Shown: piece by piece, positions 3,485-43,356 of the stretch
Layout: the number at the start of each line of letters is the position of its first letter
How positions within the stretch are numbered: position 1 is the stretch's first letter
NCBI GenBank assembly: GCA_023140385.1
Contig: JAGLLT010000015.1
Span: 1 to 56,803 of the forward strand
Direction: 5' to 3'
DNA length: 56,803 nucleotides
Source of the DNA: Candidatus Omnitrophota bacterium
GTDB taxonomy: Bacteria > Omnitrophota > Gorgyraeia > JAGLLT01
Notes under the pieces: generated by a model
Databases searched by the model: none
The model's input: only the letters and a program-made list of their open reading frames with translations
Told to the model about the DNA's origin: nothing
Program-made: the position numbers and the translations under genes

Positions 3485-3964
3485 TTGCGAAAACAGAGAG
3501 TAGATTCACTAAATTTGAGCAGGCAGATACTTAAAGGGGGAAACAGTGTCCGTATTCCGGTTGTAGGAAGCAGTATGTACCCCCTTTTTAAAAAAGGGGA
3601 TTTCATCTTTATCGAACCCGTGGATATAAAGCACGTTTCAGTTGGTGATATTATCGTTTGCCGGCGAGGCAGGAGGATGGCTGCTCACCGCTTGATAAAA
3701 ATATGCCGCGATAGCGGGAGAAAGATATTAGTAACCAAAGGAGACACCTTTTCTGAATTTGATGAACCGGTTTACTCTGAAAATGTATTGGGTAGAATAA
3801 CAGCTATTGAAAGGAGGGGCCGGCATATAAGTATTAACAGGGGTTTATACGGCGTGATAAACATTTTTTGCGCTAAACTCTCACCTTTTAGCAAGTGGAT
3901 TTATCCCCCCTTGCGAAGGATTAAATGCGGGATAAATAAGATAAAGAACAGATATGCAGTCTGA
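3485..3964 (+). CDS. S24/S26-family serine peptidase (SipW/Sec11-like, S26B type) without an N-terminal membrane anchor
   Basis: GSSMYP (Ser nucleophile box), GDIIV, AHRLIK and TKGDTFSEFDEPV line up with the SGSMEP / GDVI / THRI / TKGDNN..D boxes of SipW-type signal peptidases. The N-terminus is hydrophilic. It starts 1 nt after the kinase stop. Confidence 0.65.
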   Translation: MRKQRVDSLNLSRQILKGGNSVRIPVVGSSMYPLFKKGDFIFIEPVDIKHVSVGDIIVCRRGRRMAAHRLIKICRDSGRKILVTKGDTFSEFDEPVYSENVLGRITAIERRGRHISINRGLYGVINIFCAKLSPFSKWIYPPLRRIKCGINKIKNRYAV

Positions 3965-5963: not shown

Positions 5964-5966
5964 ATT

Positions 5967-13732: not shown

Positions 13733-15487
13733 ATGAGAGCTATAATTTTAGCCGCGGGCCGGGGAACCAGAATTGGATTAAGAAATTTACCCAAGTGTTT
13801 ACTTAAAATTGGCGGTAAGACTATTTTAGCCAAACAGGTTGAAGCCTTAAAGTCCATAGGTATAAAAGATATAACCGTAGTTTGCGGAAAAGATGAGGGG
13901 ATGTGGTCAGGGGAGAATATAAGGAAGATTCGGCGGGTAAGCTCTAAGATTATCTTTAACAAAGATTTTATGAGCACTCAAAGCCCGCATAGCCTATATC
14001 TGGCTCTAAAAGGGAGAAAACCGCAATCCCTTTTAATAATTGACGGTGATTTAATTTTTGAATCCAGAGTTTTGGAACTTTTATCCGATACCGCGAGAAA
14101 GAGTGTAATTTTGGCGCAAAGGCCGGAAGGCCTTGGCGGCAGCGGGGTTATTCTAAAGGCGGATAGAGACTTTGGTTTTTTGTTAAAGAGGATAGGCGGT
14201 GATATTATCTCCGGCTTTGTCTACGCCGGATTAATGCGTCTTGATAAGAAAGATTATCGTGCTTTTGAATGTAAGCTTAAAACGAAAAAATATAACAATT
14301 CAATCCTGGCCAAATTATTGCAGGATGTAGCGAGTGAAAGAAAAATATGCTGTATTAAGTTGGTAAATAGGGGGGGCAAAAAGGAATCGCTGGAATTAGG
14401 CTTGATGCCCGGAGGTTCTTTGTCCCGCACTACCAAGATGATAAGGAAGCAAAAAAGAAAAGCGGTAGTCAGGAAAGAATCAAAGGTTTTGGGTGAAGAT
14501 AAGTTAGCCGCGGAGATTAAATGGATAAACCGCCTTCCTGAGAAGTTGCAGAAACATTTCCCCCAAATTCTTAATTTCTATATAAGCAAAGAGCCTACTT
14601 ATTTTGAGATGCCCTATTATGATATGCCTGCCCTAAGGAACCTTTTATTAAACGGTAAGATAAAAGCGGGTAAAGCTTTGAAAACAATAGAAAAAATTTT
14701 AGATTTTATGTTCAGAGAAGTGTACTGCTTGGATAATAAGCCTGCCCTGGAAAGTTATGTCATAGAAAGGCACTTAAAAAGAATTTATGAACGTCTTATA
14801 CAAACTTATCAAGAGGTGGGTATATTCAGAGATATCATTGATGCCCCCTATATTCAGATAAATGGCAAAAAATATAAGAATATTATACCGCTTACCAAGG
14901 AAATGAGCGGTAATCCGGGATTTATTAAGTGGCTAATGCCTCCTTTTACGTGCAAAGTTCATGGGGACTTACACTTTGATAATATATTAATAGGAGAAAA
15001 GGGGAATTTTGTTCTTGTTGACCCCAGGGGCGATGATTTAGATATAACCTACGATATGGGAAAAATATGGCATTCTTGCCATGGATTATATGATTTTATA
15101 CATATGGGAAAATTTCATTTGACAAAGAAGCGGGCCAATATTACTTATAAAATTAAATCCTCTCCCGCCATACTTGAATATAGAAAGATTTACCGGGCAC
15201 TGCCTGAAATCATATTAAAATATAGACAAGTTAAAGCTGATTCTTTGTTTCTAACCAGGGCATTTTTTGCCGAAGCCGCGCATTTTTCAAGCGTTATACC
15301 TTTTCAGATTAAGAATGACGGGAAAGAGAAAATAGCCTTGGCTTGTTACGCTGTTGGGGTGGAGTTTCTAAACAATATTTATAACGTTTGGTTAAGCGGG
15401 GTAAAAAACAAAGAAAACATAGAAGCTGATATAGTAAATATAAATACTATAAAGGATTACGAAAGAGCGAAGGTGGTATTTAAGTGA
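13733..15487 (+). CDS. Bifunctional nucleotidyltransferase (N-terminal) / APH-choline-kinase-like phosphotransferase (C-terminal)
   Basis: N-terminus MRAIILAAGRGTRIG...LPKCLLKIGGKTIL (sugar/alcohol-phosphate nucleotidyltransferase signature). C-terminus VHGDLHFDNILI ... LVDPRG (HxDxxxxN ... D kinase catalytic motifs). The layout resembles a LicC/LicA-type fusion. Confidence 0.75.
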   Translation: MRAIILAAGRGTRIGLRNLPKCLLKIGGKTILAKQVEALKSIGIKDITVVCGKDEGMWSGENIRKIRRVSSKIIFNKDFMSTQSPHSLYLALKGRKPQSLLIIDGDLIFESRVLELLSDTARKSVILAQRPEGLGGSGVILKADRDFGFLLKRIGGDIISGFVYAGLMRLDKKDYRAFECKLKTKKYNNSILAKLLQDVASERKICCIKLVNRGGKKESLELGLMPGGSLSRTTKMIRKQKRKAVVRKESKVLGEDKLAAEIKWINRLPEKLQKHFPQILNFYISKEPTYFEMPYYDMPALRNLLLNGKIKAGKALKTIEKILDFMFREVYCLDNKPALESYVIERHLKRIYERLIQTYQEVGIFRDIIDAPYIQINGKKYKNIIPLTKEMSGNPGFIKWLMPPFTCKVHGDLHFDNILIGEKGNFVLVDPRGDDLDITYDMGKIWHSCHGLYDFIHMGKFHLTKKRANITYKIKSSPAILEYRKIYRALPEIILKYRQVKADSLFLTRAFFAEAAHFSSVIPFQIKNDGKEKIALACYAVGVEFLNNIYNVWLSGVKNKENIEADIVNINTIKDYERAKVVFK

Positions 15488-16353
15488 GATTGTTAATCAC
15501 CGGAGCCAACGGATTTCTGGGGAAAAAACTAATTAAAGTTCTTTCTATAGAACATGAAGTTATTGGCACCTCTTCTACAAGTGCAATTCCAAGATTGACA
15601 AAGTTGGATTTAAGAAGCCCTCGTAACATAAAAAAGACGTTATTAGATATAAAACCGGATGCCATTATTCATGCCGCGGCTATAACTAATATAGGTTACT
15701 GTGAAGATAATAAGCGCCGAGCCCGGCTGGTAAATATAGAGGGAACCAAACAGTTGGCCTATATTTGTAAAGCTGAAAAAATTAAAATGTTTTATATCTC
15801 AACAGACTATGTCTTTAGCGGACAACATTCGCCGTACAGCGAAAGAAAGAAAGCTCACCCTATAAATTATTACGGCTTAACTAAATTGGAGGCAGAGGAG
15901 TCAGTAAAAAAAATTTTATCCGACTATTGTATAATCAGGCCGGCTATTTTATATGGCTACAATGATAGCCATAATAGGGGTACTTTTGTAACTCAGGTTT
16001 TAAACAGTTTGAAGGCTGGGAAAAAAATAGCTGTTGACAACTATCGCATTAAATACCCCACCTTAATTGATGATGTTGCTAAGGGTTTTTTGTGGTTATT
16101 GAAGGAGGGCAAGAAAGGAATATTTCATTTTTCTAATCACCAGTCTATGACTCGCTATCAATGGGCTTTGAAGATTGCTGAAGTTTTTGGTTACTCGCCT
16201 CATAAAATTTTAGCGGATAATTCCGGCGGGGAAAAAAGAGCTTCCATGCCTTACAAAGTGGAATTAATAAGCGCTCGCCGGCTCGCGGTTAAATTCACAA
16301 GAGTAAAAGCCGGCTTAAAAATGATTAAGTTTCAAATGGAGCAAAGTTCATGA
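15484..16353 (+). CDS. RmlD-like NAD(P)-dependent sugar reductase (dTDP-4-dehydrorhamnose reductase family)
   Basis: ITGANGFLG Rossmann motif, YISTDYVFSG, YGLTK (YxxxK). The GTGA start overlaps the upstream stop. Confidence 0.7.
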   Translation: MRLLITGANGFLGKKLIKVLSIEHEVIGTSSTSAIPRLTKLDLRSPRNIKKTLLDIKPDAIIHAAAITNIGYCEDNKRRARLVNIEGTKQLAYICKAEKIKMFYISTDYVFSGQHSPYSERKKAHPINYYGLTKLEAEESVKKILSDYCIIRPAILYGYNDSHNRGTFVTQVLNSLKAGKKIAVDNYRIKYPTLIDDVAKGFLWLLKEGKKGIFHFSNHQSMTRYQWALKIAEVFGYSPHKILADNSGGEKRASMPYKVELISARRLAVKFTRVKAGLKMIKFQMEQSS

Positions 16354-16703
16354 AGATAATTAGAAGCAATAGCATTAAACCTTCTAAGAGGCCCCTTGGA
16401 AGGCGGGTAAAAAAAATGCTTGAGCTTAAATTAAAGCCCCCTGTTGATAGTATGGCAATATACCTGAATTTTCTGCCGCAGGGGAAATTAGATAAACATT
16501 ATCATTCTAAATCACAAGAGATAATATGCTTTCCTCAGGGAGGAAGGATAAGTGTGAACGGCCGCAGATATAAAATGAATATATGGGATATGGTTCTATT
16601 AGATATAGGCGATGTTCATTGTTGCGAAAGGAAAGGTAAGAGCACCTTGCATTTTGTAATAAAAGTGCCCAACATAAAGGACAAAAAGTGTATAAAGCCG
16701 TAA
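16350..16703 (+). CDS. Cupin-domain protein
   Basis: 117 aa with H-YH-SQEII-FPQGG ... GD-VHC pattern suggestive of a cupin barrel. ATGA start/stop coupling with the upstream gene. Confidence 0.45.
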   Translation: MKIIRSNSIKPSKRPLGRRVKKMLELKLKPPVDSMAIYLNFLPQGKLDKHYHSKSQEIICFPQGGRISVNGRRYKMNIWDMVLLDIGDVHCCERKGKSTLHFVIKVPNIKDKKCIKP

Positions 16704-17251
16704 TTTTTGATATGGATGGAGTAATAGTTGATAGTATGCCTTTACAATATGAGTCTTATAAAAGAGCGCTTAGTGAGGAAAATATCTCTATAACTGAAGA
16801 GGAGTTTTTCTTGTATGCCGGTAAACAGGGCAAGAAACTACTTCAAGATATAATGAATATTAAAAACGTATCTTTTGATATTAAGAAAGTATATGACAAA
16901 AAGAATAAAATTTACAGAGAATTACTAAAAGATATTAAAACCTTTCCCGATATTATTAAATTAATTAATGTTTTTATTGGAAAGTACAAATTGGCTTTGG
17001 TTTCTACGAGTTCAATTGTAAATATAAGTATAATTTTGGACAAACTAAACTTAAAAGCCAAATTTAATGTGATCTTAGGGGCGGAAGATGCGGATAGAGG
17101 CAAGCCGTCTCCCGATATATTTTTAAAGGCGGCTTCCCGCCTTGGCGCGTTGCCTGCTGAGTGTATTGTTTTTGAAGATTCAAACTATGGTATTGAGGCA
17201 GCCAAAAGAGCAGGCATGGAATATATAAGAGTAATAAAAGGGAGGCTGTAA
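16688..17251 (+). CDS. HAD-superfamily hydrolase (beta-phosphoglucomutase/phosphatase subfamily IA)
   Basis: Motif I VIFDMDGVIVDS, motif II LVSTSS, GKPSPDIF, motif III FEDSNYGIEAAKRAGM. Confidence 0.8.
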   Translation: MYKAVIFDMDGVIVDSMPLQYESYKRALSEENISITEEEFFLYAGKQGKKLLQDIMNIKNVSFDIKKVYDKKNKIYRELLKDIKTFPDIIKLINVFIGKYKLALVSTSSIVNISIILDKLNLKAKFNVILGAEDADRGKPSPDIFLKAASRLGALPAECIVFEDSNYGIEAAKRAGMEYIRVIKGRL

Positions 17252-17293: not shown

Positions 17294-18349
17294 ATGAGAA
17301 TAATTATTTATGATTATAAAATAGACTCCCAATCATCTTTATTTATTAAATTAAACAACAAGTATATTATTAGCCATTTACTTGAGTTTGCGGAAGGAAT
17401 TATTTCGAGGCAGGTAGTTTTTTGCTGCGAACAATCTCAGGAGATAGAGCAATTTATAGAGAAGTCAAATTTTAGAAATAAAGCTGATATTAAAGTGGTT
17501 AATTGTGTAGATGTTAAGCCCGCAGACATCATTCTAAAAGCCAATTGGATTTATGATAAGAGGTATTTAAGGAAATTAATAAAGCGTAAAAACACAGATA
17601 TTTCTTTAGCAGTTGTCTGGAAAATAGAGAAGCAAAGCGATGTAAAAAGAGCGGAAGAATTTTTAAGCAGAGAAGATTGGAACCCCATAGGTAGATATAT
17701 AAATGTCAAATTAGGAAAAATTATAGCAAGAGCTTTAGCTAAAAAACAATTAGTTCCCAATCAAATAACTATTCTTTCTTTTGTTTTTTCTATTTTAGCA
17801 GCATTATTTTTTGCTACAAATAAATATCCTCTTCTTATTTTGGCCGCCGTTTTTGTGCAGGTTCACTTTACGCTGGATGTAGCAGACGGGCATCTTGCCC
17901 GCCTGAAAAACTCGACTTCAGAGTTTGGAAGCTGGTTAGACAGTATAGTGGGCAGGATTACCGATATCTTATGGTATACAGGAATTTGCTGGGGCCTTTA
18001 TTTGAAATACAATCACAGCGGCTTTCTCCTTTTGGGAATTTTTGTAGTTTTGGGTAATTTTATGATTTCTTATATTGCTTATCTTAAAAAGACTTATTTG
18101 GGAATGGAAGCTGAGATTGTTCATAGTGAAGGAGCAGAGCATCCATCGTCCAGGAGAAACGCGGCTAAGGCCATTTATTGGTTTTTAGAACAATGGGATG
18201 TTAGGGCTTATATTATTACCTTATTTGCCATTTTAAATAGACTGGAAATCGCCCTTATTTATTTTGCGTTGGATTATAATGTTCGCTGGATTTATAATTG
18301 CATCAAAGTTATATCCTTACGTTACTTTTCAAGAAAACAAATAGATTAA
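17294..18349 (+). CDS. CDP-alcohol phosphatidyltransferase-like membrane protein with ~130-aa soluble N-terminal domain, paralog 1
   Basis: LDVADGHLARLKNSTSEFGSWLDSIVG gives DxxDGxxAR-x8-G-x3-D, but the final Asp of the canonical motif is Gly. About 6 TM helices. Collinear with 20604-21629 and 23558-24583. Confidence 0.7.
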   Translation: MRIIIYDYKIDSQSSLFIKLNNKYIISHLLEFAEGIISRQVVFCCEQSQEIEQFIEKSNFRNKADIKVVNCVDVKPADIILKANWIYDKRYLRKLIKRKNTDISLAVVWKIEKQSDVKRAEEFLSREDWNPIGRYINVKLGKIIARALAKKQLVPNQITILSFVFSILAALFFATNKYPLLILAAVFVQVHFTLDVADGHLARLKNSTSEFGSWLDSIVGRITDILWYTGICWGLYLKYNHSGFLLLGIFVVLGNFMISYIAYLKKTYLGMEAEIVHSEGAEHPSSRRNAAKAIYWFLEQWDVRAYIITLFAILNRLEIALIYFALDYNVRWIYNCIKVISLRYFSRKQID

Positions 18350-18361
18350 AGGTAATAAGCT

Positions 18362-19675
18362 GTGAATATAACAAAACACTCTGTAATTAATTTTTGTTCT
18401 TCAATTATAATTTTTATTTTTAATTTAGCCATCGGCATTATGATTGCCAAAACCTTAGGGCCTGAAGGCAGAGGTGTGTATTTCCTGGTTTTTATGATTG
18501 CCGCTACAAGTTTCTCCGTGGTTAATTCTTCCCTTTCTTCCGCGGCGGTATATTACATAGGAACTAAAAAATATAGTTTGTCGGACATTATAACAAATTG
18601 TACCGTCTTATCACTTTTCTTGGGAGTAATTGGTATTGGTTTGGTATGCGTCTTTTTTAAGTTCATTTCAATTCATTTCTTGAAAGATGTAAACCCGCTC
18701 CATCTAAAAGTTGCTCTTCTTTTCATTCCTTTAAGTTTGCTGAGCACGTCTTTTGCTTCCATTTTTATGGGCATGGATGATATCCCCAAGTATAATCTAA
18801 TTATGATTGTTAGAGCGGGCCTGAGCGCGTTCTTCATTACCATAGTCTGCTTTTTTTCTCGAGATATTCTATTGTTTATAATGGCGAATTTATTGGCTCT
18901 TGGCATCACTTGTCTGTTCGCGGCGATTTTATTGTCCCGCTATTTTAAAAGAAGAGTTTATTTAAATTTTCGCTTAATAAAAGATGTTTTAATCTTTGGC
19001 TGGAAGGGGCATTTCGGCCAAACCCTTTTCAGTATAGTAAACCGTTTAGATTCTTATCTGATAAAGTTCTTTTTGGGAAGCGCTTTTCTTGGTTTTTATT
19101 CAGTTTCTCTTGCCGTAGAGGGCTTGTGGTCTATATCTACGTCTATGGGAATTGCCTTGTTCCCTAAAGTATCTTCTTCGCTTCTTGAAGATAAAAACGG
19201 ACAAACCATGGCCGTTACCAGGCACGGGTTTTTTCTTACTTGTTTATTTTGCCTTATGTTTTTTATTTTCAGCCGGCCTTTTGTTAAGATATTATATGGT
19301 GATGTTTTTTTACCTGCCGTCGCTCCCTTATGCCTTCTCTTGCCCGGCGTGGCTTTTTTAAGTATTACTAAGACGCTAAAGCCCTATTTATCCGGCATAG
19401 GAAAACCGCAAATTGCCACTTATTCTTCAATGGTAACAATTTTAGTTTGCGTCTTCTTAAACTTATTGTTTATTCCCAGACTGGGGATTAAAGGCGCCGC
19501 CTTAGCAACTACATGTTCTTACTTAACTTATACCGCTATAATCTTGGCCGCCTTTCTAAAGATAAGCGGATGTAGATTAGTTGACACGATTTTTATAAAA
19601 AAGCGGGATTTTTTAATGTATAGTAATTTTATACTTAAGTTATGCCGCGTTTTTCAGAAAGCGAAAACATTGTAA
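18362..19675 (+). CDS. Polysaccharide flippase (Wzx / MOP superfamily)
   Basis: 437 aa, at least 12 hydrophobic helices, typical length and context. Confidence 0.7.
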   Translation: MNITKHSVINFCSSIIIFIFNLAIGIMIAKTLGPEGRGVYFLVFMIAATSFSVVNSSLSSAAVYYIGTKKYSLSDIITNCTVLSLFLGVIGIGLVCVFFKFISIHFLKDVNPLHLKVALLFIPLSLLSTSFASIFMGMDDIPKYNLIMIVRAGLSAFFITIVCFFSRDILLFIMANLLALGITCLFAAILLSRYFKRRVYLNFRLIKDVLIFGWKGHFGQTLFSIVNRLDSYLIKFFLGSAFLGFYSVSLAVEGLWSISTSMGIALFPKVSSSLLEDKNGQTMAVTRHGFFLTCLFCLMFFIFSRPFVKILYGDVFLPAVAPLCLLLPGVAFLSITKTLKPYLSGIGKPQIATYSSMVTILVCVFLNLLFIPRLGIKGAALATTCSYLTYTAIILAAFLKISGCRLVDTIFIKKRDFLMYSNFILKLCRVFQKAKTL

Positions 19676-19683
19676 AGGACGCT

Positions 19684-20529
19684 ATGGAACTTAAAAAGCC
19701 TTTTGATATTAGTAAGGGTAGTATCTACGATTTGTTATATTTACGCTATCCGGATAAAATTCTATCTTTTGCCGATAGATATCTGGTCTGGCGAAGGATG
19801 GACTCAACTATAAAGTGTTTTCGCGGAGCGGTTAGAAAAGGAAAGAGAAAAAAAATTAATGTTTTGGATGTTGGCTGCGGCCGGGGACGTCTTACTTTTA
19901 GTCTAGAAGAGGCGGCCGGCAAGGATTATGATATGCGTGTTAATGGAATTGACACTTACAAACCGGCTATAGATTCCGCCAACATCAGAAAGAAAGATCT
20001 TAATAGAGATAAATATCATTTTGAACTGATGGACGCCCGTAATTTGAAGTTCAAAGATGACTTCTTTGACATAATAATATGTTCAGAAGTGATTGAACAT
20101 CTTGAAAATCCTCAATTGGCTATAAAAGAAATATACCGGGTACTTAAAAAAGGCGGATTAGCCATTATTTCAACACCCAATAAGAGGGAAGACGCGTTAA
20201 CTAAAATTGTTAAGGTTGTATTTGAAAAGCTTTTTAATTATAAAAAGGCTGAATTATCCGAAGATATGGAAAATGAGTGTTCTATGTTAAAACACGCGGC
20301 AATCTATCATATCTCTGTCAAAAATCATAAAGAATGGACAAAAATTTTTAAACAATGCGAGTTCTCTTTAGAGACAAAAATTGGCACGGGGGGCATGCTC
20401 TGTAATCGTAAGTTTCTTGAAGAACATCGCCTTCTTTTTGGACTAATGGTCATTTTTGATACTCTTTTAGAAAACGCGCCTTTTTCTTGTCTTTGGTCGG
20501 AAATAGCGCTTTTTGTATTGAAAAAATAA
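19684..20529 (+). CDS. Class I SAM-dependent methyltransferase
   Basis: VLDVGCGRGRL motif I and DIIICSEVIEHL. I prefer the ATG at 19684, just after the flippase stop, over the ORF-track start at 19642. Confidence 0.75.
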   Translation: MELKKPFDISKGSIYDLLYLRYPDKILSFADRYLVWRRMDSTIKCFRGAVRKGKRKKINVLDVGCGRGRLTFSLEEAAGKDYDMRVNGIDTYKPAIDSANIRKKDLNRDKYHFELMDARNLKFKDDFFDIIICSEVIEHLENPQLAIKEIYRVLKKGGLAIISTPNKREDALTKIVKVVFEKLFNYKKAELSEDMENECSMLKHAAIYHISVKNHKEWTKIFKQCEFSLETKIGTGGMLCNRKFLEEHRLLFGLMVIFDTLLENAPFSCLWSEIALFVLKK

Positions 20530-20603
20530 ATAGCCGTGAAAGATATTTCAGTTACACTAATTGAAGTTATGCGGTTTCACAAAGAGGTTAAAAAACAGTG
20601 CGG

Positions 20604-21629
20604 ATGAAGTTGGTTATCTACGATTATAAAATAGATTCAGAATGTTGTTTTTTTATGAGTATTAACTCTGAATTAGCGCTGGATTGGTTTATTGAGTTTA
20701 TTAAAGAAGTTTCTTTTGAGGAGGTCATATTTTGTACTGAGGAAACTGAAAGGACAAGGCAATCTATTGAGGCCAAACTTGGTAAAAGGCCGGATATTCA
20801 AATAGTTAGTTCGTTAGATTCTCCCGCCGGAGTTTTGACGTTAAAAGCAAATTATATCTATGATAGGAGAAGGCTAACAAAACTTATAAGAAAAGGAGCT
20901 GTTAATCTGTCTCCAGCCATTCTGTGGGAGATAAAGAATAAGAGGGATGTTAAGAATGCCGAAGCTGCCTTAGATAGAATAAGAAATTTCCCTATTGGCA
21001 GGTATATAAATCTGCCGCTTGCCAAAGCGATGGACGCGCGCCTTGTTAAAACTTCGGTTACTCCCAATCAACTTACTTTTATTTCTTTGGCGCTTGGTAT
21101 CTTGGGGGCCCTTTGCTTTGCTTCCCATGCTTACGGCCTTCTTATTCTGGCGGCTATTTTTATTCAATTGCATTACATCTTAGATTTTGCCGACGGGCAC
21201 CTCGCGCGCCTTAGGGGCACAGCCTCGGGATTTGGAGCATTTTTGGATGGTATGACGAATAAAGTTGTTGAGAGCTTTTGTTATGTAGGAATTTCCTATG
21301 GTTTATTTATGAAATATGACCGTATCTTTTTTCTTATCATCGGATTATTAGTTATTGTAGGACATTTTATGATAGATTACATTAGTTTTTTAAGGGAGGC
21401 ATGCTTTGGGAGGAATTTTAGTTACAGCTATCATGTTGCTGATAAAAAGCGACTGTTCAGAGCGGTAAAGAAGGTTTATTGGTTTTTAGAACAGGGGGAT
21501 GTTCGTTTTTATATAATTAGTATTTTTGCTGTTTTGAATAAGTTAGAGATAGCCGTTATTTACTTTGCTATAGACTTTAATGCCAGGTGGATTTTTAATG
21601 TGGTTAAGGTGATTTGCCGCAAATTCTAA
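20604..21629 (+). CDS. CDP-alcohol phosphatidyltransferase-like membrane protein, paralog 2
   Basis: LDFADGHLARLRGTASGFGAFLDGMTN, with the last Asp replaced by Asn. I prefer the ATG at 20604 (MKLVIYDYKIDS) by analogy with the paralog N-termini. Confidence 0.7.
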   Translation: MKLVIYDYKIDSECCFFMSINSELALDWFIEFIKEVSFEEVIFCTEETERTRQSIEAKLGKRPDIQIVSSLDSPAGVLTLKANYIYDRRRLTKLIRKGAVNLSPAILWEIKNKRDVKNAEAALDRIRNFPIGRYINLPLAKAMDARLVKTSVTPNQLTFISLALGILGALCFASHAYGLLILAAIFIQLHYILDFADGHLARLRGTASGFGAFLDGMTNKVVESFCYVGISYGLFMKYDRIFFLIIGLLVIVGHFMIDYISFLREACFGRNFSYSYHVADKKRLFRAVKKVYWFLEQGDVRFYIISIFAVLNKLEIAVIYFAIDFNARWIFNVVKVICRKF

Positions 21630-22768
21630 TGAAAAAAATTCTTATAATTCCTCATCATCCGGATTTTTCTGAAATAAAGATTAGGCTTGTAGAAATAGCT
21701 AAGGCCCTTACTAAGCACTATGAAGTCTATCTTGTCAGTTGGCAAACAGCATCGGAAGAATATTCCTGGCAAAGCAGACTTTTATCGGCTGTAAAGAATA
21801 TCTTTCCCAAAAGTAAACCGTATAAGAAAGGAGAGATTAATGTTGTAGAAGTTCCTATTCTTCACAGGCCATTGCGTATAGCTTGCGCTTTTAATTCGTT
21901 CTGGCTTAAAAATATTATAAAGAGAGAAAAGGTAGATATTGTAATAAACGGTTCTTTCTATATGTTTAATATCTCACCAAAAGGAAAATTTAAGTATATT
22001 TTTGATCTGGCCGATTTGCCGGCCGGAGGCGGTAGTCATTTTAGCAAATTTGTTAAGGAGCAGCTTAAAAGAGAATTTAAAAAGGTAAACGCTGTAATTG
22101 CCGCCTCAAAAGGGTTAGCGGGTTATGTCTTAGAGAATTACCGGAAAAAAGCTTTCTTTGTGCCAAACGGCGCTGACATAAAAAAGATTCGTTCCGTAAA
22201 GCAGGAAAATATAGATGAAATACGCAAACAGTACAACCTCTATGGAAAGTGGATTATAGGATATATTGGTTACATTGGAGAGTGGGTCAATGTTGAATTA
22301 GTGGTTAAAGCCTTCGAAGAAGTAAAAAAATATGTGCCGCGGGCACTTTTATTCTGGATAGGCGCATCCCCAAATATGAGAAAATTAAGGAAATTATACG
22401 AAAAAGATGATGTTATCTTTGCCGGAGGAGTAGCAAAGGAGAATATAGAAGCTTATTTTAATTTGTTAGATTTAGCTGTTGTACCTACCAGAAAAAGTCT
22501 ATTCCAGGATTTAGCTTTCCATATAAAACTTATAGAATATTCCGCGGCAAGAAAATTTGTCATTTCCACCCCGCTAGAAGGAACTAAAGTGATGAATTTT
22601 CCAAACGTAATTTTTGCTTCTGAAAATACAGAAGACTGGGTGAGGGCTATTAAAAAAGCTCAGCAGATGCAATGGCGGATGGAATGGGATGGTTTATTTG
22701 AGAATTATAGCTGGGCAAAAATTGCCAATACATTAACGGGAATTATTGAAAATCATGAAAGCGAATAA
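21629..22768 (+). CDS. GT-B fold glycosyltransferase (GT4-like)
   Basis: Length and C-terminal pattern (VIFAGGV ... LDLAVVPT ... KLIEYSAARKFVISTP) fit the Glycos_transf_1 type. The ATG overlaps the upstream TAA (TAATG). Confidence 0.6.
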   Translation: MKKILIIPHHPDFSEIKIRLVEIAKALTKHYEVYLVSWQTASEEYSWQSRLLSAVKNIFPKSKPYKKGEINVVEVPILHRPLRIACAFNSFWLKNIIKREKVDIVINGSFYMFNISPKGKFKYIFDLADLPAGGGSHFSKFVKEQLKREFKKVNAVIAASKGLAGYVLENYRKKAFFVPNGADIKKIRSVKQENIDEIRKQYNLYGKWIIGYIGYIGEWVNVELVVKAFEEVKKYVPRALLFWIGASPNMRKLRKLYEKDDVIFAGGVAKENIEAYFNLLDLAVVPTRKSLFQDLAFHIKLIEYSAARKFVISTPLEGTKVMNFPNVIFASENTEDWVRAIKKAQQMQWRMEWDGLFENYSWAKIANTLTGIIENHESE

Positions 22769-23504
22769 GCAAAATTGCTATTCAAAATTTTGGAAAAAGA
22801 GAGCAGAGCGTTATAACGCGTTAGAATGGGCCAATCATCAATCATATTTAAACGCATTTGCGCAAGCGGGGGATTTTAAAAAGACTGATATTGTGTTGGA
22901 TGTTGGAACCGGAACCGGTATCGTTGCTCACGTAATTTCACCACGCGTAAAACAAGTCATCGGATTGGACAAATCGCAGGATATGTTAGAACATAGTAAT
23001 TGGTATGAAAATATGTATTTTATCAGAAGGGACATATTGAATCCAATATTCAAAGACGGGGTATTTGATAAAGTAACCGCAAGGCAGGTGTTCCATCATA
23101 TTTTAGAAGGAACACAGGAAGCGATGGATGAATGTTACCGCGTGTTAAAGAGCGGCGGAAAGATGATATTTTCAGAAGGCATTCCACCCTCGGAAGAGGT
23201 TAAAGAAGATTATATTAAGATATTTAAATTAAAAGAAAAACGATTGACATTTATGGAAGAAGATTTAATCGCGTTAATGGAAAAAGCGGGGTTTAAAAAT
23301 ATTAAACTCAATGTTTTATGGTTAAGACGGATGAGTGTAAAAAATTGGCTTATAAATAGCGGCCTGCCGCAATCTACGCAAGATAAAATATTCAAGCTCC
23401 ATGTAAATGCCGCGGATTACTTCAAAAAGGTTTACAATCTGACGGAAAACGGAGGAGATTGTTTGATAGATATGAAAATGGTAATACTGGAAGGGGAAAA
23501 ATGA
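22755..23504 (+). CDS. Class I SAM-dependent methyltransferase
   Basis: VLDVGTGTGIV motif I, FDKVTARQVFHH, LKSGGKMIF. Confidence 0.75.
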   Translation: MKANKQNCYSKFWKKRAERYNALEWANHQSYLNAFAQAGDFKKTDIVLDVGTGTGIVAHVISPRVKQVIGLDKSQDMLEHSNWYENMYFIRRDILNPIFKDGVFDKVTARQVFHHILEGTQEAMDECYRVLKSGGKMIFSEGIPPSEEVKEDYIKIFKLKEKRLTFMEEDLIALMEKAGFKNIKLNVLWLRRMSVKNWLINSGLPQSTQDKIFKLHVNAADYFKKVYNLTENGGDCLIDMKMVILEGEK

Positions 23505-23557
23505 ATACAGAGGAGCGCATAAGTGAAAGTATTGATTAAACGCGGGAGGAGTAATTT

Positions 23558-24583
23558 GTGAAAATTGTTATTGTTGATTATCCTATAGAGCAAAAATCAT
23601 GCCTTTTTCTTCGTGTAGATTCCAAAAGATTGTTGGAATATTTTATTGACATTGCCAAAGAAATATCCGCTAAAGCGTTGAAGATTTCCAGTCCCTATGT
23701 TGAAGATATTCGTGAAATAACTGAAAGAAAAGGTATTTCCGTAGAGTTTATAAAACCTGAAGAAATAAATTCCTCCGATGTTATCTTAGAAGGAAATTGT
23801 CTTTATAATAAAAGAGTATTAACTAAATTGATAAAGAAAAAGCCTTATGATTTTTCCAAAGCTATTCTGTGGAGAATTAAAACCCCGGCAGATACCCAAA
23901 GAGCTTGTGAAACTTTGAGGCGGGAAAACAGATTTATTATCAGCAGGTATTTTATGTTGAGGTGGGGAAGGGGACTGGCCCGATTCCTCAATTCTACTTC
24001 TATAACGCCTAATCAGGTGACTTTACTTTCTTTACTTGCGGCAATTTTTGCCGCTTTGTGTTTTGCCTCAGGCCAGTATAAATTTTTTATATTGGGGGCA
24101 TTTTTTCTTTTATTATACGGCACCCTGGATTTTACTGATGGGCAGTTAGCCCGCTTGAAGAACATGGACTCCGATTTTGGAAAATACCTTGATACAATTG
24201 TAGGAATGTTAGCCCAAAGTACCATGCACGCCGGTATTGCCTGGGGTCTTTTTTTGAAACACTCGCACTCAATTTTTATTTTGTTAGGTTATATGGTCAT
24301 CATTTTTGATTTTATGTATAATTATATAATTTCTACTACGAAATTACAATCTGCCGAAGATAAAAAATTTAAAGAAAAGGGAATGAGATGGCTGCCGCGG
24401 TTAAAGAAAATTAATGATATTTTTTATTCCTGGGATATCAGATTGTATCTTTTCGTCATTTTTGTAATTATTGATAAACTGCAGATTATATTTTTATTTT
24501 ACGCGGTATATTTCGCTATGTTGTTTTTTTACCAGGTTATAAAAAGATACAGTTTTCAAAATAAAAGAGATATTGTTGTATAA
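23558..24583 (+). CDS. CDP-alcohol phosphatidyltransferase-like membrane protein, paralog 3
   Basis: LDFTDGQLARLKNMDSDFGKYLDTIVG, with the last Asp replaced by Gly. GTG start preceded by GGGAGGAG. Confidence 0.7.
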   Translation: MKIVIVDYPIEQKSCLFLRVDSKRLLEYFIDIAKEISAKALKISSPYVEDIREITERKGISVEFIKPEEINSSDVILEGNCLYNKRVLTKLIKKKPYDFSKAILWRIKTPADTQRACETLRRENRFIISRYFMLRWGRGLARFLNSTSITPNQVTLLSLLAAIFAALCFASGQYKFFILGAFFLLLYGTLDFTDGQLARLKNMDSDFGKYLDTIVGMLAQSTMHAGIAWGLFLKHSHSIFILLGYMVIIFDFMYNYIISTTKLQSAEDKKFKEKGMRWLPRLKKINDIFYSWDIRLYLFVIFVIIDKLQIIFLFYAVYFAMLFFYQVIKRYSFQNKRDIVV

Positions 24584-24633: not shown

Positions 24634-25455
24634 ATGGCAATTAAATATATAAACTGTAATCTTTGCGGTCAAAATAGTTTCACAGTTCTGGAAACTGATG
24701 AAATCTATCAGGTGGTTAAATGTAAAAATTGTAAATTAATCTATGTAAATCCTCAACCGGACAAAACTCTGCTTTTTGAGCATTATAATCAAAAGTATTT
24801 TGACCCGTGGCTAAAAGAACAATTTACCGCTCGCGAGAAGATGTGGAAGAAGAGATTAAAGAAAGTCCAAGCCTTAAAAAAAGCGGGAAGGCTGTTAGAT
24901 GTTGGGTGCGGCACCGGCTTGTTCCTGAGTCAGGCAAGAAATAGTGGTTGGGATGTATATGGCACAGAGGTATCCGGTTTTGCCGTAGACTATATTAAGA
25001 ATAAATTTGGCATAGGGGTACTCAAGGGGAAGCTCCGAGATGCCAAGTTTCCTGATAATTTTTTCGATGTTGTTACTTTTTGGCACGTTTTAGAACATAC
25101 TGCGGATCCTTTGGGCAATTTAACTGAAGCGCGAAGAATTTTAAAACCCGGCGGCGTAGTGGTGATTGCCGTGCCAAATGCGCATAATATTATTTACAAA
25201 ACCATCTATATGCTGATTAAACTGCGTAAACTTAGATTGTTTTCTATAAATGACAGAGAAAAACATCTTTATTATTTTTCCACCGGTACTTTAAAAAAAA
25301 TAATAGAGAAAGCAAATCTTATCCCCGTAAAGTTAGACGCGGATAAAGAAAGAATCATACTTGGTGAACGCATTATTGATACTTTCGCCTGGATTGTGTA
25401 TAAAATTTTAAAAGTTAATTTTGGTATGGCAATTGAAGTTTATGCAAGGAAATAG
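24634..25455 (+). CDS. SAM-dependent methyltransferase with N-terminal CxxC...CxxC zinc ribbon (paralog set A, member 1)
   Basis: CNLCGQ...CKNCKLIYVNP, then LLDVGCGTGLF and VTFWHVLEH. Confidence 0.75.
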   Translation: MAIKYINCNLCGQNSFTVLETDEIYQVVKCKNCKLIYVNPQPDKTLLFEHYNQKYFDPWLKEQFTAREKMWKKRLKKVQALKKAGRLLDVGCGTGLFLSQARNSGWDVYGTEVSGFAVDYIKNKFGIGVLKGKLRDAKFPDNFFDVVTFWHVLEHTADPLGNLTEARRILKPGGVVVIAVPNAHNIIYKTIYMLIKLRKLRLFSINDREKHLYYFSTGTLKKIIEKANLIPVKLDADKERIILGERIIDTFAWIVYKILKVNFGMAIEVYARK

Positions 25456-25465
25456 TAGGTTACCT

Positions 25466-26614
25466 ATGCGTCATAAGATTATCTGGCCGGTTATAAGAAA
25501 GATATTGTATTTGCTATGTACGGCTATTTTAAAAGGTTTGTCTTATTTATTTTTTTGGATAGGCCTCAAAACCCCGGATTTAAAAAATGTACATAGGATT
25601 TTGTTGATTAAGACGGAGCGCATAGGAGATTTAGTTCTTTCTACACCGGCTATCCGGGCCATTAAGCAGAATTTTCCTCGAGCCTCTGTCAGCATAATAA
25701 TCAATTCTTACACTAAGGCGATAGTGGAAAACGACCCGCATCTGGATGAGATTATAGTTTATGATGTTAAAGGGGCGCATAAAAGCCTGATAGAAAAAAT
25801 ACGTTTTATTAAAGATCTGCGTAAAAAAAAATTTGATATAGCGGTTGATTTAAACACGCGGCCTTTTTTCTTTCTGCCTGTTTGGCTATTATGTTTAAGC
25901 GCGGCAAAAATTACTTTAGGTTTAGATAATTTTGGCCGGGGCCTTTTTTATAACATAAAAGTAAAGCCACGGCGGAAGCCAAGGCCCTTAACCGAAGAAG
26001 TGTTACATATTCTTTCTCCTTTAGGAATAAGTACCCCTGATAGACAGCTTAGGCTTTTTCTTCGCGAAGAAGACAAGGTTTATATTCAAAAATACTTAAA
26101 CGAAAAAGGTGTAAGGAAAAATGATTTAGTAGTAGGTATTCACCCGGGCGGATATTATGAGACCTTGCGCTGGGTAGAAGATGGATATGCCAAAGTAACG
26201 CAACACCTGATTAAAGAACGCAAGGCTAAAGTTTTCTTTGTAGGCAATCGTAAAGAAAGAGATTTAGTGGATAGGATAACAGCCTTGACAAATGGGGGGC
26301 CAATCAATTTGGCGGGCAAGATTACTCTTGGTCAGCTTATGGCTATAATCTCAAGATGTAATCTTTTTATTGGTAATAGTTCCGGCCCCCTGAACATAGC
26401 CCTGGGCTTTGGCATTTCTACCATTTCTTTTTTAGGCCCCAGCATTCCCGAAAGATGGCGGCCATCCGGTGAGAAAAATATTGTTTTTAGAAAAGATTTG
26501 CCCTGCAGTCCATGTGAATCAGGCTACTGCCGGAGAAGAGATTTTGCCTGTATGAAAAAAATTAAGCCCGAAGAGGTAATAGAGGCCGTAAATAGGCAGT
26601 TAGAAAAAAGATGA
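25466..26614 (+). CDS. GT9-family glycosyltransferase (heptosyltransferase-like)
   Basis: ILLIKTERIGDLVLSTPAIRAIKQNFP and GNSSGPLNIA are typical of GT9. Start uncertain among 25421, 25442 and 25466. Confidence 0.7.
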   Translation: MRHKIIWPVIRKILYLLCTAILKGLSYLFFWIGLKTPDLKNVHRILLIKTERIGDLVLSTPAIRAIKQNFPRASVSIIINSYTKAIVENDPHLDEIIVYDVKGAHKSLIEKIRFIKDLRKKKFDIAVDLNTRPFFFLPVWLLCLSAAKITLGLDNFGRGLFYNIKVKPRRKPRPLTEEVLHILSPLGISTPDRQLRLFLREEDKVYIQKYLNEKGVRKNDLVVGIHPGGYYETLRWVEDGYAKVTQHLIKERKAKVFFVGNRKERDLVDRITALTNGGPINLAGKITLGQLMAIISRCNLFIGNSSGPLNIALGFGISTISFLGPSIPERWRPSGEKNIVFRKDLPCSPCESGYCRRRDFACMKKIKPEEVIEAVNRQLEKR

Positions 26615-26639: not shown

Positions 26640-28394
26640 ATGGGATGTTGTAATGAAAAGTTAAAAAATATGCCAAGAAGATATATTGTTCTATTTTTTT
26701 GCTTTTGTGTTCTAATTTATATTGTTTTCGTGATTTTCTCTATGGGAGAGCCGTTATTAGGTGATTCTCCTTATTTTTTGTTTTCAGCTAAGGTTTTTAA
26801 TAATGAGGCCCTGCAATCATATTTTCCTCAAATTGTAGGTGTGGATCACCCTACTCTTTATGTCCACATTTTAGCCTTAGTGGATAGGTTGATAGGCTTA
26901 AATCCTGTTAGTGCCAGATCTATAGGTATCTTAAGTTTTATTGCCACCTTAGCCCTAATCTATGTTGTCGCGCAAAACGTCTTTAAGGAGGGTAAAAATA
27001 TCTTTCCGGTTGGCTTAATAGCCGTTTTTCTTTACGCTATAAACCCCATGGCCATCCAGGGTTCTTTGCTGCCGGACAATGATACTACCATACTAACGCC
27101 TTTATTATTACTTTTTATCTATTTTTTTGTAAAGCTTAAGGGTAAAAACAGAGGTTTTCTTTTAGGAATATTTTTTGGGTTTATTTTATGGGTAAAGCTT
27201 ACCACGCTTTTTATTTTAATCCCCGCTATTTTTACATTTTATTCCTTGAGGGGTAAATTCAGGGAAGGTTTTAAGGAGTCAGGCCTTGTGCTTTTTATAG
27301 GACTCGTTCTATTTGTTATTTCCTGGGGGAGCTACTGTTACTTCACGAAGAGGCCGTATTTGTTTCCCTTAGTACATCTTAGAAATATTTTTCTGGCCGG
27401 CAGCCCTTTGTTTATATATTCATCAGGCAATAAGGTTATTTTAAATACAGCCAGAATAGCGCTTAGGATAATTTTATACGCGTCACCTTTTTATTTTTTG
27501 ATATTTTTTAAGAGTTTTTGGTATAGATTGCGGGAGTTTATTTTAAGAAGAGAAAGGCATTCTGTTGATTTCCTGTTTATTTTAGGCCTTACGCTTTTTT
27601 GTGCTTATCTATTTGTTGGAGGCCTTACACATAGTTTTCCTAAATATCACTATCCGTTTCTTTCCTTATCGGCTATTCTTATAGCCGGTTTTATTGCTGA
27701 TAAGGTTAAATTTCAAAGAAAGCATTTACTTCTTTATGGCCTTATGGCCGCCAGCATAGTTAGCTATAATATATTTTTAGTAGGAGATTTCCTTTATTTC
27801 AGCGATTACGCTCTTAGAGAAAGTCTAATTATGACCGGAAAAATTACAGATGAAGCCGCGAAAAATTTAGTAATCCAGCTGGTATTATATGTATTCCCTT
27901 TTTTACTTATCTTTGTGATTTTAAAAGTTAAAAAAGCAAGTTTAGTTTTTTATAGAACAGTTTTTATATGGACAGTGGCTTCCTGCCTTTCGATGAATAT
28001 TCTCCAGGCAAGGGCCGATTATCATACAGTTTATTGCTACGGGGGAAGAGGAACGAAAGAAATGGTATCATTGGTGAGGAAGATGAAGACCCGGAGTAAA
28101 TCTATTGTAACCACGCAGGATATTTTCTACAATATAGATGAGAAAGAATTTCTAACTTCTCCCGGTTATCGCTTTCCTCCCGCCATTTTTTCATCTTCTA
28201 AAAAGTTTATGGAAGTAATTGAGGATAAAAAACCGGATTTTGTTATTTTTAGTATTTCTTCCAATACCGTAAAGCAGTATCAGGCGGTTTTTAATAATTT
28301 GGAAGTGGTTAATCTTCTAAAAAAATATTTTTCACGGGAGGAAATAGGTTCTTATACAATATGGGTACGGAAGGAAGGACATATTAAAGAATAA
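26640..28394 (+). CDS. GT-C fold membrane glycosyltransferase (ArnT/PMT-like, polyprenyl-phosphate-sugar dependent)
   Basis: 584 aa, at least 10 TM helices in the N-terminal ~450 aa followed by a soluble C-terminal domain. An architecture-based call. Confidence 0.55.
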   Translation: MGCCNEKLKNMPRRYIVLFFCFCVLIYIVFVIFSMGEPLLGDSPYFLFSAKVFNNEALQSYFPQIVGVDHPTLYVHILALVDRLIGLNPVSARSIGILSFIATLALIYVVAQNVFKEGKNIFPVGLIAVFLYAINPMAIQGSLLPDNDTTILTPLLLLFIYFFVKLKGKNRGFLLGIFFGFILWVKLTTLFILIPAIFTFYSLRGKFREGFKESGLVLFIGLVLFVISWGSYCYFTKRPYLFPLVHLRNIFLAGSPLFIYSSGNKVILNTARIALRIILYASPFYFLIFFKSFWYRLREFILRRERHSVDFLFILGLTLFCAYLFVGGLTHSFPKYHYPFLSLSAILIAGFIADKVKFQRKHLLLYGLMAASIVSYNIFLVGDFLYFSDYALRESLIMTGKITDEAAKNLVIQLVLYVFPFLLIFVILKVKKASLVFYRTVFIWTVASCLSMNILQARADYHTVYCYGGRGTKEMVSLVRKMKTRSKSIVTTQDIFYNIDEKEFLTSPGYRFPPAIFSSSKKFMEVIEDKKPDFVIFSISSNTVKQYQAVFNNLEVVNLLKKYFSREEIGSYTIWVRKEGHIKE

Positions 28395-42288: not shown

Positions 42289-43356
42289 ATGCGGTTAGTA
42301 GTGATTTTTTCATTCTCTTTTTTAATTGCGTATCTTTCTACGCCCCTCTTTAGAAAATTAGCTTTAAAATTTAAGATTTTAGACAAGCCGGGCCGCAGAA
42401 AGATACACAAAAAATCCATCCCTCTTTTGGGGGGATTAGCTGTTTACTTATCCATGATATTGGGGTTTGCCTTAAACTTCACGAATCTACGTTCTCTTTT
42501 AGGGATATTAATAGGCGCTACCCTAATATTAATAATGGGTGTAATAGATGATATCAGGGGATTATCCGCTCAGTTTCGGTTAGTGGGCCAAGTTATAGCC
42601 GCGCTGATAATAATTAGCTTTGGAATTCGCCTCAGTTTTTTACCTGATAACTTGTGGGGTAACGCGGGAGAGATACTCTTGACTTTAATCTGGATAGTAG
42701 GCATTACCAATGCCTTTAATTGTTTGGATGGAATAGACGGTTTGGCATCAGGAACCGCCGCTGTAAGCGCTCTTTTCTTTTCTATTATTTCCTATCAGAC
42801 CCATCAGCCCTTAGTCGGCTTAACGGCTCTGATTTTAATGGCGGGCTGTTTGGGTTTTTTACCGCATAATCTTAAAAAAGAGAAGATATTTTTGGGAGAT
42901 GGCGGTAGTACATTTATTGGTTTTATTCTCGCGGGTATAGCCATATTGGGTAATTGGGCGGAAGATAATGTAGTGAAGCTGATAATACCTGTTTTAATTT
43001 TGGGAGTTCCCATTTTCGATATGACATTTACTACCATAATGAGAATCAGAAAAGAGAAAATTAGTTCTATCGTAGAATGGCTTAAATACGCGGGGAAAGA
43101 CCATTTTCATCACTACCTCATAGATTTAGGACTCTATCAGGAAGGAGCAATGCTTTTTATTTGTTTCATTAGTGTCTCTTTTGGTATTAGCGCGATTATG
43201 GTAAGTAATGAAAATGCCGTAGTCGGCTTTTTTTCAATTCTGCAGGCTTTTATTATTTTCGCGGGCATCGCTATTTTGATGATAGTCGGCAAAAGACGCC
43301 GCGGCAGGCGGCATATCCATAATAAAAATCAGGAGACACTGGACTCGCCCAAGTAA
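42289..43356 (+). CDS. MraY/WecA-family polyprenyl-phosphate N-acetylhexosamine-1-phosphate transferase (initiating transferase)
   Basis: GVIDDI, NAFNCLDGIDGLA, FLGDGGSTFIGF, and about 10 TM helices. Confidence 0.85.
   Translation: MRLVVIFSFSFLIAYLSTPLFRKLALKFKILDKPGRRKIHKKSIPLLGGLAVYLSMILGFALNFTNLRSLLGILIGATLILIMGVIDDIRGLSAQFRLVGQVIAALIIISFGIRLSFLPDNLWGNAGEILLTLIWIVGITNAFNCLDGIDGLASGTAAVSALFFSIISYQTHQPLVGLTALILMAGCLGFLPHNLKKEKIFLGDGGSTFIGFILAGIAILGNWAEDNVVKLIIPVLILGVPIFDMTFTTIMRIRKEKISSIVEWLKYAGKDHFHHYLIDLGLYQEGAMLFICFISVSFGISAIMVSNENAVVGFFSILQAFIIFAGIAILMIVGKRRRGRRHIHNKNQETLDSPK

Follow-up and report, generated by a model that had tools for sequence, protein, structure and literature searches.

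Loss of the fourth signature aspartate in three AF2299-like CDP-alcohol phosphotransferase homologues of a predicted exopolysaccharide locus from Candidatus Omnitrophota

Can a homologue of the cytidine diphosphate (CDP)-alcohol phosphotransferases (CDP-APs) dispense with the fourth aspartate of the family signature? The question is raised by three genes on a 56,803-nucleotide contig of a Candidatus Omnitrophota bacterium (JAGLLT010000015.1, positions 1 to 56,803, of GenBank assembly GCA_023140385.1), the whole of which was analyzed and is referred to here as the window. The CDP-AP signature reads D1xxD2G1xxAR...G2xxxD3xxxD4, in which D4 is the fourth Asp; D1 to D3 bind the metal ion(s) and the diphosphate of CDP, whereas D4 is a ligand of metal 2 and the presumed general base. 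The three genes, whose products all carry another residue at D4, and the signature motif of the first are as follows:

17294..18349, + strand: paralog 1, 351 amino acids (aa), AF2299-like CDP-AP homologue, with Gly220 at the D4 position
17876..17953, + strand: signature motif of paralog 1, DVADGHLARLKNSTSEFGSWLDSIVG, with final codon GGC at the D4 site
20604..21629, + strand: paralog 2, 341 aa from the ATG at 20604 (343 aa from the GTG at 20598), with Asn219 at D4
23558..24583, + strand: paralog 3, 341 aa, GTG start, with Gly216 at D4

None of the three open reading frames (ORFs) is interrupted or truncated, and the C-terminal helices are conserved. The ATG of paralog 2 gives the N terminus MKLVIYDY, like those of paralogs 1 and 3, and is also the start in the public gene call for this protein (P0005, 341 aa). 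An initial annotation, made from the letters of the sequence, had described the three as collinear, and full-length alignment bears this out: paralogs 2 and 3 are 44% and 35% identical to paralog 1, respectively, and 77 columns are invariant across the three. Their membership of the CDP-alcohol transferase family, also assumed there, is supported by PF01066 (48.6, 46.4, and 42.1 bits for paralogs 1 to 3; gathering cutoff, 22). In a scan of the three against NCBIfam, no equivalog threshold was reached, the best partial matches being archaetidylinositol-phosphate synthase (NF040950; 64 to 88 bits against a cutoff of 180), bifunctional IPCT/DIPP synthase (NF041135; 49 to 76 against 580), and phosphatidylinositol-phosphate (PIP) synthase (NF045883; 55 to 66 against 170). 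The closest relative of solved structure by sequence was AF2299 (E = 1e-19 with phmmer for paralog 1; 2e-27 with a profile). Paralog 3 is the most divergent copy, with Gln instead of His after D2-G, Tyr at position 191, and a nonacidic residue at 299 (positions compared across the paralogs are numbered as in paralog 1). Judged by these alignments, the three genes are paralogs that separated long ago within the AF2299-like branch of the CDP-AP superfamily; because one defining feature of the catalytic signature fails, we call them D4-less AF2299-like homologues and not bona fide CDP-APs.

The signature of paralog 1 runs D195-x2-D198-G199-x2-A202-R203-x8-G212-x3-D216-x3-G220, and in each paralog seven of the eight signature residues are present, D4 being the sole exception (codons GGC at 17951-17953, AAT at 21258-21260, and GGA at 24203-24205 in paralogs 1 to 3). 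Three independent alignment routes agree on this register: (i) with phmmer against PDB sequences, paralog 1 (YGAWLDGVLDRYSD) aligned without gaps to AF2299 (FGSWLDSIVGRITD), pairing LDSIVGRITD with LDGVLDRYSD, and was likewise ungapped through the motif against IPCT-DIPPS and the PIP synthases; (ii) a 12-sequence profile gave the identical register; and (iii) a profile built from 235 D4-bearing relatives aligned all three paralogs over their full length (E = 5e-91 to 6e-80), with Gly, Asn, and Gly in the D4 column, no gap, and maximal posterior across the motif. The Gly, Asn, and Gly originally read at this position therefore stand, and a D4 that is present but shifted by an indel, for which we checked, is ruled out. 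The eight signature residues have been described as absolutely conserved, and P(D/N)xx(T/S) at the start of the first transmembrane (TM) helix as the cytosine-binding motif (PMC4634129); the latter is intact in paralogs 1 to 3 (PNQIT, PNQLT, and PNQVT, respectively). To judge from these residues, the apparatus for binding CDP and metal 1 (D1, D2, G, A, R, G, D3, and PNxxT) is completely retained. A motif scan of all frames of the 56.8-kb window found no other CDP-AP motif and no canonical partner paralog for heterodimerization.

The predicted fold agrees with this assignment. An AlphaFold2 model of paralog 1 (mean predicted local distance difference test score, 79) has an alpha/beta N-terminal domain (N-domain; aa 1-127, with the boundary at about 130), a juxtamembrane helix at 137-149, and helices at 155-175, 178-204, 210-239, 243-268, 290-313, and 317-350. 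A Foldseek search of the PDB with this model placed AF2299 first (4Q7C, 4O6N, and 4O6M; E of about 1e-9) over about 386 aligned columns, so both domains are covered; IPCT-DIPPS and the PIP synthases ranked after it (E of 1e-9 to 2e-8 for the AF2299 and IPCT-DIPPS matches), and further matches included PgsA and PSS. Searched by itself, the N-domain gave weak matches to TarI, IPCT (2XME), KdsB, and PntC (E = 0.15 to 0.9), and the profile alignment to IPCT-DIPPS begins at LW.D..T.EDV..A, the motif that closes the nucleotidyltransferase fold. A degenerate nucleotidyltransferase-like domain, in our best explanation cytosolic, is thereby supported. Of what had been proposed for this domain, the likeness to nucleotidyltransferases and the missing GxGxR motif in all three paralogs hold, but neither is special to these genes: GxG[RK] is missing from 192 of 193 relatives with an N-domain of AF2299 length, whether D4 is present or not, and is present in 10 of 20 relatives with a longer N-terminal region of IPCT-DIPPS length. 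A “cytidylyltransferase-like domain” of AF2299 is already in the literature (PMC4634129).

How widespread the loss might be was addressed with a word-indexed protein search, which returned 14 relatives, and an exhaustive profile search of 1.84 billion cluster representatives, which returned 17,276 matches, 73 of them below 1e-30. In an alignment of 164 sequences, comprising cluster representatives from both searches (P numbers) and the window paralogs, the D4 column held Asp in 117, Gly in 27, Asn in 15, His in 3, Trp in 1, and Tyr in 1 (47 of 164 non-Asp). D1, D2, G1, and G2 were invariant and A, R, and D3 nearly so; D4 alone varied among the signature residues and therefore does not follow a pattern of general decay. 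In a neighbor-joining tree, paralog 1 fell with P0002 and P0003, paralog 2 with about ten Asn-type representatives, and paralog 3 with P0016 and P0020; since each sits in its own sublineage with orthologues from other metagenomes, the paralogs are old. Asn at D4 is kept in 11 paralog 2-type sequences down to 38% identity, and Gly in the paralog 3 lineage at 37% identity. The orthologue P0002 matches paralog 1 at 69% identity and likewise has a Wzx gene immediately after it, yet its D4 is Asp. The tree, which is a rough one, shows at least five D4-less clades that lie well apart, and Fitch parsimony on it counts about 17 changes between Asp and non-Asp. On this sampling, the loss of D4 is both conserved within lineages and recurrent in uncultured bacteria. 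A pattern scan of GTDB species-representative genomes found no member of the window's CDP-AP clade; a metagenome scan found four loci with relatives. The CDP-AP superfamily and its AF2299-like branch are already known; what appears new from these alignments is the natural loss of D4 with a conserved Asn or Gly. In the literature searched, coverage of which was incomplete, we found no description of natural D4-less CDP-APs, of CDP-APs in exopolysaccharide clusters, or of their pairing with methyltransferases.

Some relatives depart from the signature in other ways. One clade has His at D4 (P0103, P0114, and P0130), and in two others the residue right after a Gly at D4 is Glu or Asp (P0025-P0027, P0046, and P0082), possibly a one-residue shift in the register of the acid. 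P0016, 77% identical to paralog 3, combines Glu at D3 with Gly at D4.

If the paralogs are active, which residue could stand in for D4? Precedents for the proton acceptor differ: D4 is a metal-2 ligand and the proposed base in PgsA1 (PMC6506517), a D4-held water is the proposed acceptor in MjPSS (PMC8633023), and in yeast CPT1 the proposed base is His118 with Glu114, within the signature and not D4 (PMC11696302). Asp224 of paralog 1, four residues past the D4 site, had been put forward as an alternative acid, a suggestion that fails: AF2299 (RYSD) and the PIP synthases (RISD) carry the same Asp alongside D4, R-x-x-D thus being common to canonical enzymes, and the position is Glu in paralog 2 and Gln in paralog 3. 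A base relocated to His191 or Gln189 gains no support as an innovation of these proteins: the Q-x-H stretch also occurs in AF2299, which has D4, and position 191 is Tyr in paralog 3. Polar residues are conserved at the start of TM5 (E299, D302, R304, and Y306), and an acid at 299/300, ahead of the conserved D302-x-R, is enriched in four D4-less clades (as E-Q-W-D, E-D-x-D, D-D-x-D, and H-D-x-D). As a compensator this acid was rejected, being present in the D4-bearing neighbors P0002, P0048, and P0043 and missing from paralog 3; at most it is a permissive clade background. A register shift by one residue (G-E or G-D) occurs in clades B and D and not in the window's own.

The genes around the paralogs suggest a context in which they might act. 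They lie in a polysaccharide locus that extends on a single strand from about 7.2 kb to 43.4 kb and contains Wza-, Wzc-, and Wzy-like genes, many GT4/GT9 glycosyltransferases, methyltransferases, an AsnB-like amidotransferase, two pepcterm_ATPase-like genes, and a WecA-like primer, a content that in our best explanation would be of the Wzx/Wzy-dependent, XrtA/PEP-CTERM-like exopolysaccharide type. The features nearest to the paralogs, and the primer, are as follows:

13733..15487, + strand: 584-aa fusion with an N-terminal nucleotidyltransferase bearing GxGxR, candidate maker of a CDP-activated donor
15484..16353, + strand: RmlD-like reductase, in the cassette between the fusion gene and paralog 1
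16350..16703, + strand: small ORF, the counterpart of which in a related locus (L001) is called Cupin_2
16688..17251, + strand: beta-phosphoglucomutase-family HAD hydrolase, last cassette gene before paralog 1
18362..19675, + strand: Wzx-type flippase, directly downstream of paralog 1
19642..20529, + strand: class I S-adenosylmethionine (SAM) methyltransferase, directly upstream of paralog 2
21614..22768, + strand: GT4 glycosyltransferase, downstream of paralog 2
22746..23504, + strand: class I SAM methyltransferase, directly upstream of paralog 3
24634..25455, + strand: methyltransferase, downstream of paralog 3
25421..26614, + strand: GT9 glycosyltransferase, downstream of paralog 3
42289..43356, + strand: WecA/MraY-family initiating phosphoglycosyl transferase, at the distal end of the locus

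The interleaving with flippase, glycosyltransferase, and methyltransferase genes that had been noted at the outset is evident in this order (Wzx, methyltransferase, GT4, two methyltransferases, and GT9). The N-terminal part of the fusion matches NTP_transf_3 (E = 5e-14), with PntC (8.5e-8) and LicC (1.5e-7) as its best solved relatives. The WecA-like gene makes a role for the paralogs as priming enzyme of the locus unnecessary. Three distinct phospho-alcohol transfer steps, or a teichoic acid-like phosphodiester polymer, had been suggested; a Wzx/Wzy-type locus with a WecA-like primer would fit side-group decoration better than a phosphodiester backbone.

Every relative's locus that we examined was a polysaccharide locus (L numbers). 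In L001, the same cassette (fusion, RmlD-like, cupin, and HAD) precedes a single CDP-AP homologue, a Gly variant, which is the only recognizable transferase on 19 kb beside this activation cassette. Wzx lies directly downstream of paralog 1, P0002, P0003, and P0004, and in most loci a class I SAM methyltransferase gene directly precedes the homologue, as it does for paralogs 2 and 3, P0002, P0003, P0008, the L084 copy, P0027, and P0165; the upstream methyltransferase is missing at paralog 1, and at P0004 a short ORF lies upstream, at the contig end. The methyltransferase at 19642-20529 has orthologues of 59 to 62% identity in L084 and L088. That at 22746-23504 shares 54% identity, along its whole length, with the methyltransferase directly upstream of an independent D4-less clade (L090, L092, and L093), the CDP-AP homologues of which are 23 to 28% identical to the window ones; its solved relatives include phosphoethanolamine N-methyltransferases, at modest E values. 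The homologues stay stably linked to genes for Wzx, a methyltransferase, and a nucleotidyl-activating enzyme. On whether a D4-less subfamily is widespread and always exopolysaccharide associated, a question raised at the outset, the loss is recurrent in several clades and all loci examined were of this kind; D4-bearing relatives from Planctomycetota are likewise found in glycan clusters. The loci of the independent clade have neighbors of their own, namely a 725- to 747-aa sulfatase/phosphodiesterase-family membrane protein and an ATP-sulfurylase (L092, 1914-6763; L093; L090, 5376-8695), and in L092 and L093 also a nucleotidyltransferase fused to the C-terminal half of a pyruvate-kinase (PK) barrel. 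This gene content suggests that the clade may use a different activated head group, perhaps from phosphoenolpyruvate (PEP) or another phospho-acid.

From the above we infer, tentatively, that the paralogs are still-working phospho-head-group transferases that decorate a lipid-linked repeat unit by means of a base other than D4; of the readings considered it is the one that we favor, although we give it somewhat less than even odds. Under this scheme, the 584-aa LicC/PntC-like nucleotidyltransferase fusion would make a CDP-activated small head group; the SAM methyltransferases encoded directly upstream of paralogs 2 and 3 possibly methylate the head group while it is CDP linked; and, on the cytoplasmic side and ahead of flipping by Wzx, each paralog would attach the phospho-head group to the repeat unit carried on undecaprenyl. 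Three paralogs could then provide up to three different decorations or acceptor sites. The acceptor might be deprotonated by a metal-bound or Asn-positioned water or by a pocket residue such as H191, H200, or E299. Methylation of a CDP-linked donor followed by transfer has been shown in Clostridioides difficile (bioRxiv 10.64898/2026.02.12.704994). Because D4 alone is lost, selectively and repeatedly, with a lineage-conserved replacement and the nucleotide site kept, we take the loss as a functional shift and not as decay.

A number of observations weigh against activity or against this scheme. Every characterized CDP-AP that we know of has D4, and in the D4-bearing sister group, abundant in Planctomycetota, all 118 sequences sampled keep the Asp, so D4 is normally important to the branch. 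In the PIP synthase of Mycobacterium tuberculosis, D93N, which replaces D4, nearly abolished activity while sparing substrate binding, a result that predicts inactivity where D4 is missing (PMC4634129). The alignment offers no compensating residue common to all three paralogs, which at the candidate positions read Asp, Glu, and Gln (+4), His, His, and Gln (200), His, His, and Tyr (191), and Glu, Glu, and Tyr (299) in paralogs 1, 2, and 3. The putative kinase half of the fusion has a faint APH match (E = 0.065) around the motif HGDLHFDN (HGDLHxDN), and no solved-structure relative was found for it. In L089 the activation cassette is absent from the contig. Donor, acceptor, and activity of the paralogs are in the end entirely inferred.

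The main rival, and a serious one, is that the paralogs are pseudoenzymes, which would bind a CDP-alcohol and metal 1 without turnover and act as membrane scaffolds, chaperones, or sensors for the neighboring Wzx, glycosyltransferases, and methyltransferases, for instance by offering a CDP-linked substrate to the methyltransferase next to them or by anchoring soluble enzymes at the membrane. D4 is the residue whose conservative mutation kills catalysis and spares binding (PMC4634129), exactly the pattern seen; three copies occur in one locus, none of them canonical, and the gene pairing with methyltransferase and Wzx is tight. Paralog 3 shows drift (Q200, Y191, and Y299), as does its relative P0016 with Glu at D3. 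We nevertheless think a pseudoenzyme somewhat less likely than a working transferase. Seven of the eight signature residues, PNxxT, and the polar residues at the start of TM5 are held across deep divergence and in many D4-less clades, which exceeds the needs of a scaffold; a dead protein in L001 would leave its activation cassette without a recognizable transferase on 19 kb; and Asp and Gly interchange between orthologues of 69% identity, with Wzx directly after both. At the other extreme, we give almost no credence to an artifact, whether from a shifted alignment, from an error of sequencing or assembly, or from pseudogenes in decay. Asp to Gly and Asp to Asn are indeed each single-nucleotide changes, but the alignments are ungapped at maximum posterior, the ORFs are intact and full length, the same substitutions recur in orthologues from independent metagenomes, and the profile built solely from D4-bearing relatives refutes it.

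An altered chemistry, in which the nucleophile needs no general base or is repelled by the Asp carboxylate, or in which the donor is a phosphonate, strikes us as improbable. Examples would be a phosphate monoester as acceptor (polyprenyl phosphate, or a sugar phosphate giving a diphosphodiester), a carboxylate acceptor, or CMP-aminoethylphosphonate as donor. Such a change would suit the repeated replacement of D4 by small or neutral residues (Gly and Asn) beside a strictly kept CDP and metal-1 site; the top solved relative of the fusion's nucleotidyltransferase is the phosphonate-specific PntC (E = 8.5e-8), and clade D loci contain the fusion of PK barrel and nucleotidyltransferase and the sulfatase/phosphodiesterase-family protein. 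Set against these, neither a PEP mutase nor any other phosphonate gene turned up in the window ORFs that were scanned, a WecA-type primer is already in the locus, and the acid at +1 (G-E and G-D) in some D4-less clades and the His at D4 in one argue that a base is still wanted. We know of no biochemical precedent for such chemistry in the CDP-AP family, which also counts against it.

Returning to transferases that are active without D4, the pattern could be more general than this locus: an undescribed, widespread AF2299-like clade might work without D4, paired with a dedicated SAM methyltransferase as a two-gene module that places methylated phospho-head groups on exopolysaccharides via a different proton acceptor or an anionic acceptor, with three such modules in the window. 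We regard this generalization as doubtful in its full form. Were the proteins active, the role of D4 as universal base would need revision, and nature would have supplied a test set, for example the Gly/Asp orthologue pair of 69% identity; were they inactive, they would be the first described pseudoenzyme branch of the CDP-AP superfamily, tied to polysaccharide export genes. Either way, the conserved pair of methyltransferase and D4-less CDP-AP homologue points to an uncharacterized polysaccharide decoration in uncultured phyla.

Other parts of the window deserve brief mention. Within the polysaccharide locus, a UbiA-family gene (29511-30389) scores 260.6 bits against the NCBIfam cutoff of 234 for decaprenyl-phosphate phosphoribosyltransferase; it is flanked by short-chain dehydrogenase/reductase (SDR)-type epimerase/dehydrogenase genes (28480-29508 and 30411-31430) and preceded by a GT-C/PMT_2 membrane glycosyltransferase gene (26640-28394), and the segment 26640-31430 looks like a putative pathway for a polyprenyl-phospho-pentose donor (decaprenylphosphoryl arabinose [DPA]-like). 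Two AAA_22 ATPases of 52% identity (7227-8042 and 40716-41531) bracket the locus; the former, the one of the pair that was scanned, matches the XrtA/PEP-CTERM-associated ATPase at 209 bits, under the cutoff of 324.5. The AsnB-like protein (32436-34319), an exporter (8065-10008), and the Wzc-like protein (10030-11982) resemble components of XrtA systems, all below cutoffs, and no exosortase was identified among the window ORFs scanned. The locus has at least seven methyltransferase domains, and the 704-aa product of 34316-36430 joins a Trm112-like zinc ribbon to a class I methyltransferase and a GT9 domain; a 497-aa ORF (38482-39975) has no NCBIfam match and a subthreshold Pfam match to the PHP domain. 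Upstream of the locus, 975-6752 encodes PqqD-like, radical SAM, and S24-like peptidase proteins, a family-less ORF, NTP_transf_5, and a divergent ABC-2 transporter pair, a putative cluster resembling those for ribosomally synthesized and posttranslationally modified peptides (RiPP-like). DnaK (50185-52167) has its best matches among GTDB species representatives in Candidatus Omnitrophota metagenome-assembled genomes (71 to 73% identical), which points weakly to that phylum as the source.

Among characterized systems, AF2299 of Archaeoglobus fulgidus (4O6M, 4O6N, and 4Q7C) comes closest, with the same GxGxR-less cytidylyltransferase-like N-domain, juxtamembrane helix, and six TM helices; it shares with the window proteins PNQxT, the Q-x-H before D1, D1xxD2GxxARL, S-x-x-G, D3, and the R-x-x-D after the D4 site. 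It differs in having D4 (LDGVLDRYSD) where the window proteins have Gly, Asn, and Gly, and in the residue after D2-G, which is Glu in AF2299 and His, His, and Gln in paralogs 1 to 3; moreover, it is archaeal, with a soluble donor of CDP-glycerol type and no assigned physiological reaction, whereas the window genes belong to a bacterial polysaccharide locus. In IPCT/DIPP synthase (4MND; NF041135), the membrane domain and the C-terminal part of the nucleotidyltransferase domain are homologous to the window proteins, but that enzyme retains D4 and a complete, functional cytidylyltransferase that includes GxGxR, with D1 preceded by about 300 residues, compared with about 190 and no Gly-rich loop here. 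The bacterial PIP synthases (RsPIPS, 5D91/5D92; MtPgsA1, 6H53/6H59) have the six-TM fold and the signature in common with the window proteins and, unlike them, use the lipid donor CDP-diacylglycerol, lack an N-domain, and retain D4. For the AF2299-like proteins of Planctomycetota (Isosphaeraceae, such as Aquisphaera and Singulisphaera), the sole annotation is “CDP-alcohol phosphatidyltransferase family protein.” Architecturally they match the window proteins, and their genes too belong to glycan clusters, where the neighbors encode GT2, GT4, GT9, and a methyltransferase; they are 22 to 25% identical to the window paralogs, keep D4 in all 118 sampled, and have the methyltransferase downstream and not directly upstream.

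Two further comparisons concern the pathway as proposed. Compared with LicC/LicA-type activation, which combines a GxGxR-bearing cytidylyltransferase with a kinase of choline-kinase/APH fold, the GxGxR-bearing cytidylyltransferase-like part of the 584-aa fusion matches LicC (1.5e-7), and the putative kinase half has the faint APH match given above. In C. difficile, FtaB, FtaC, and FtaD lead from CDP-threonine through N-methylation to phosphotransfer onto N-acetylglucosamine (bioRxiv 10.64898/2026.02.12.704994). FtaC acts on CDP-threonine, and the parallel with the window would be in pathway logic only, with no homology claimed: what the two may share is a small head group activated by cytidylylation, its methylation by a SAM enzyme while CDP linked, and its placement on a glycan by a phosphotransferase.

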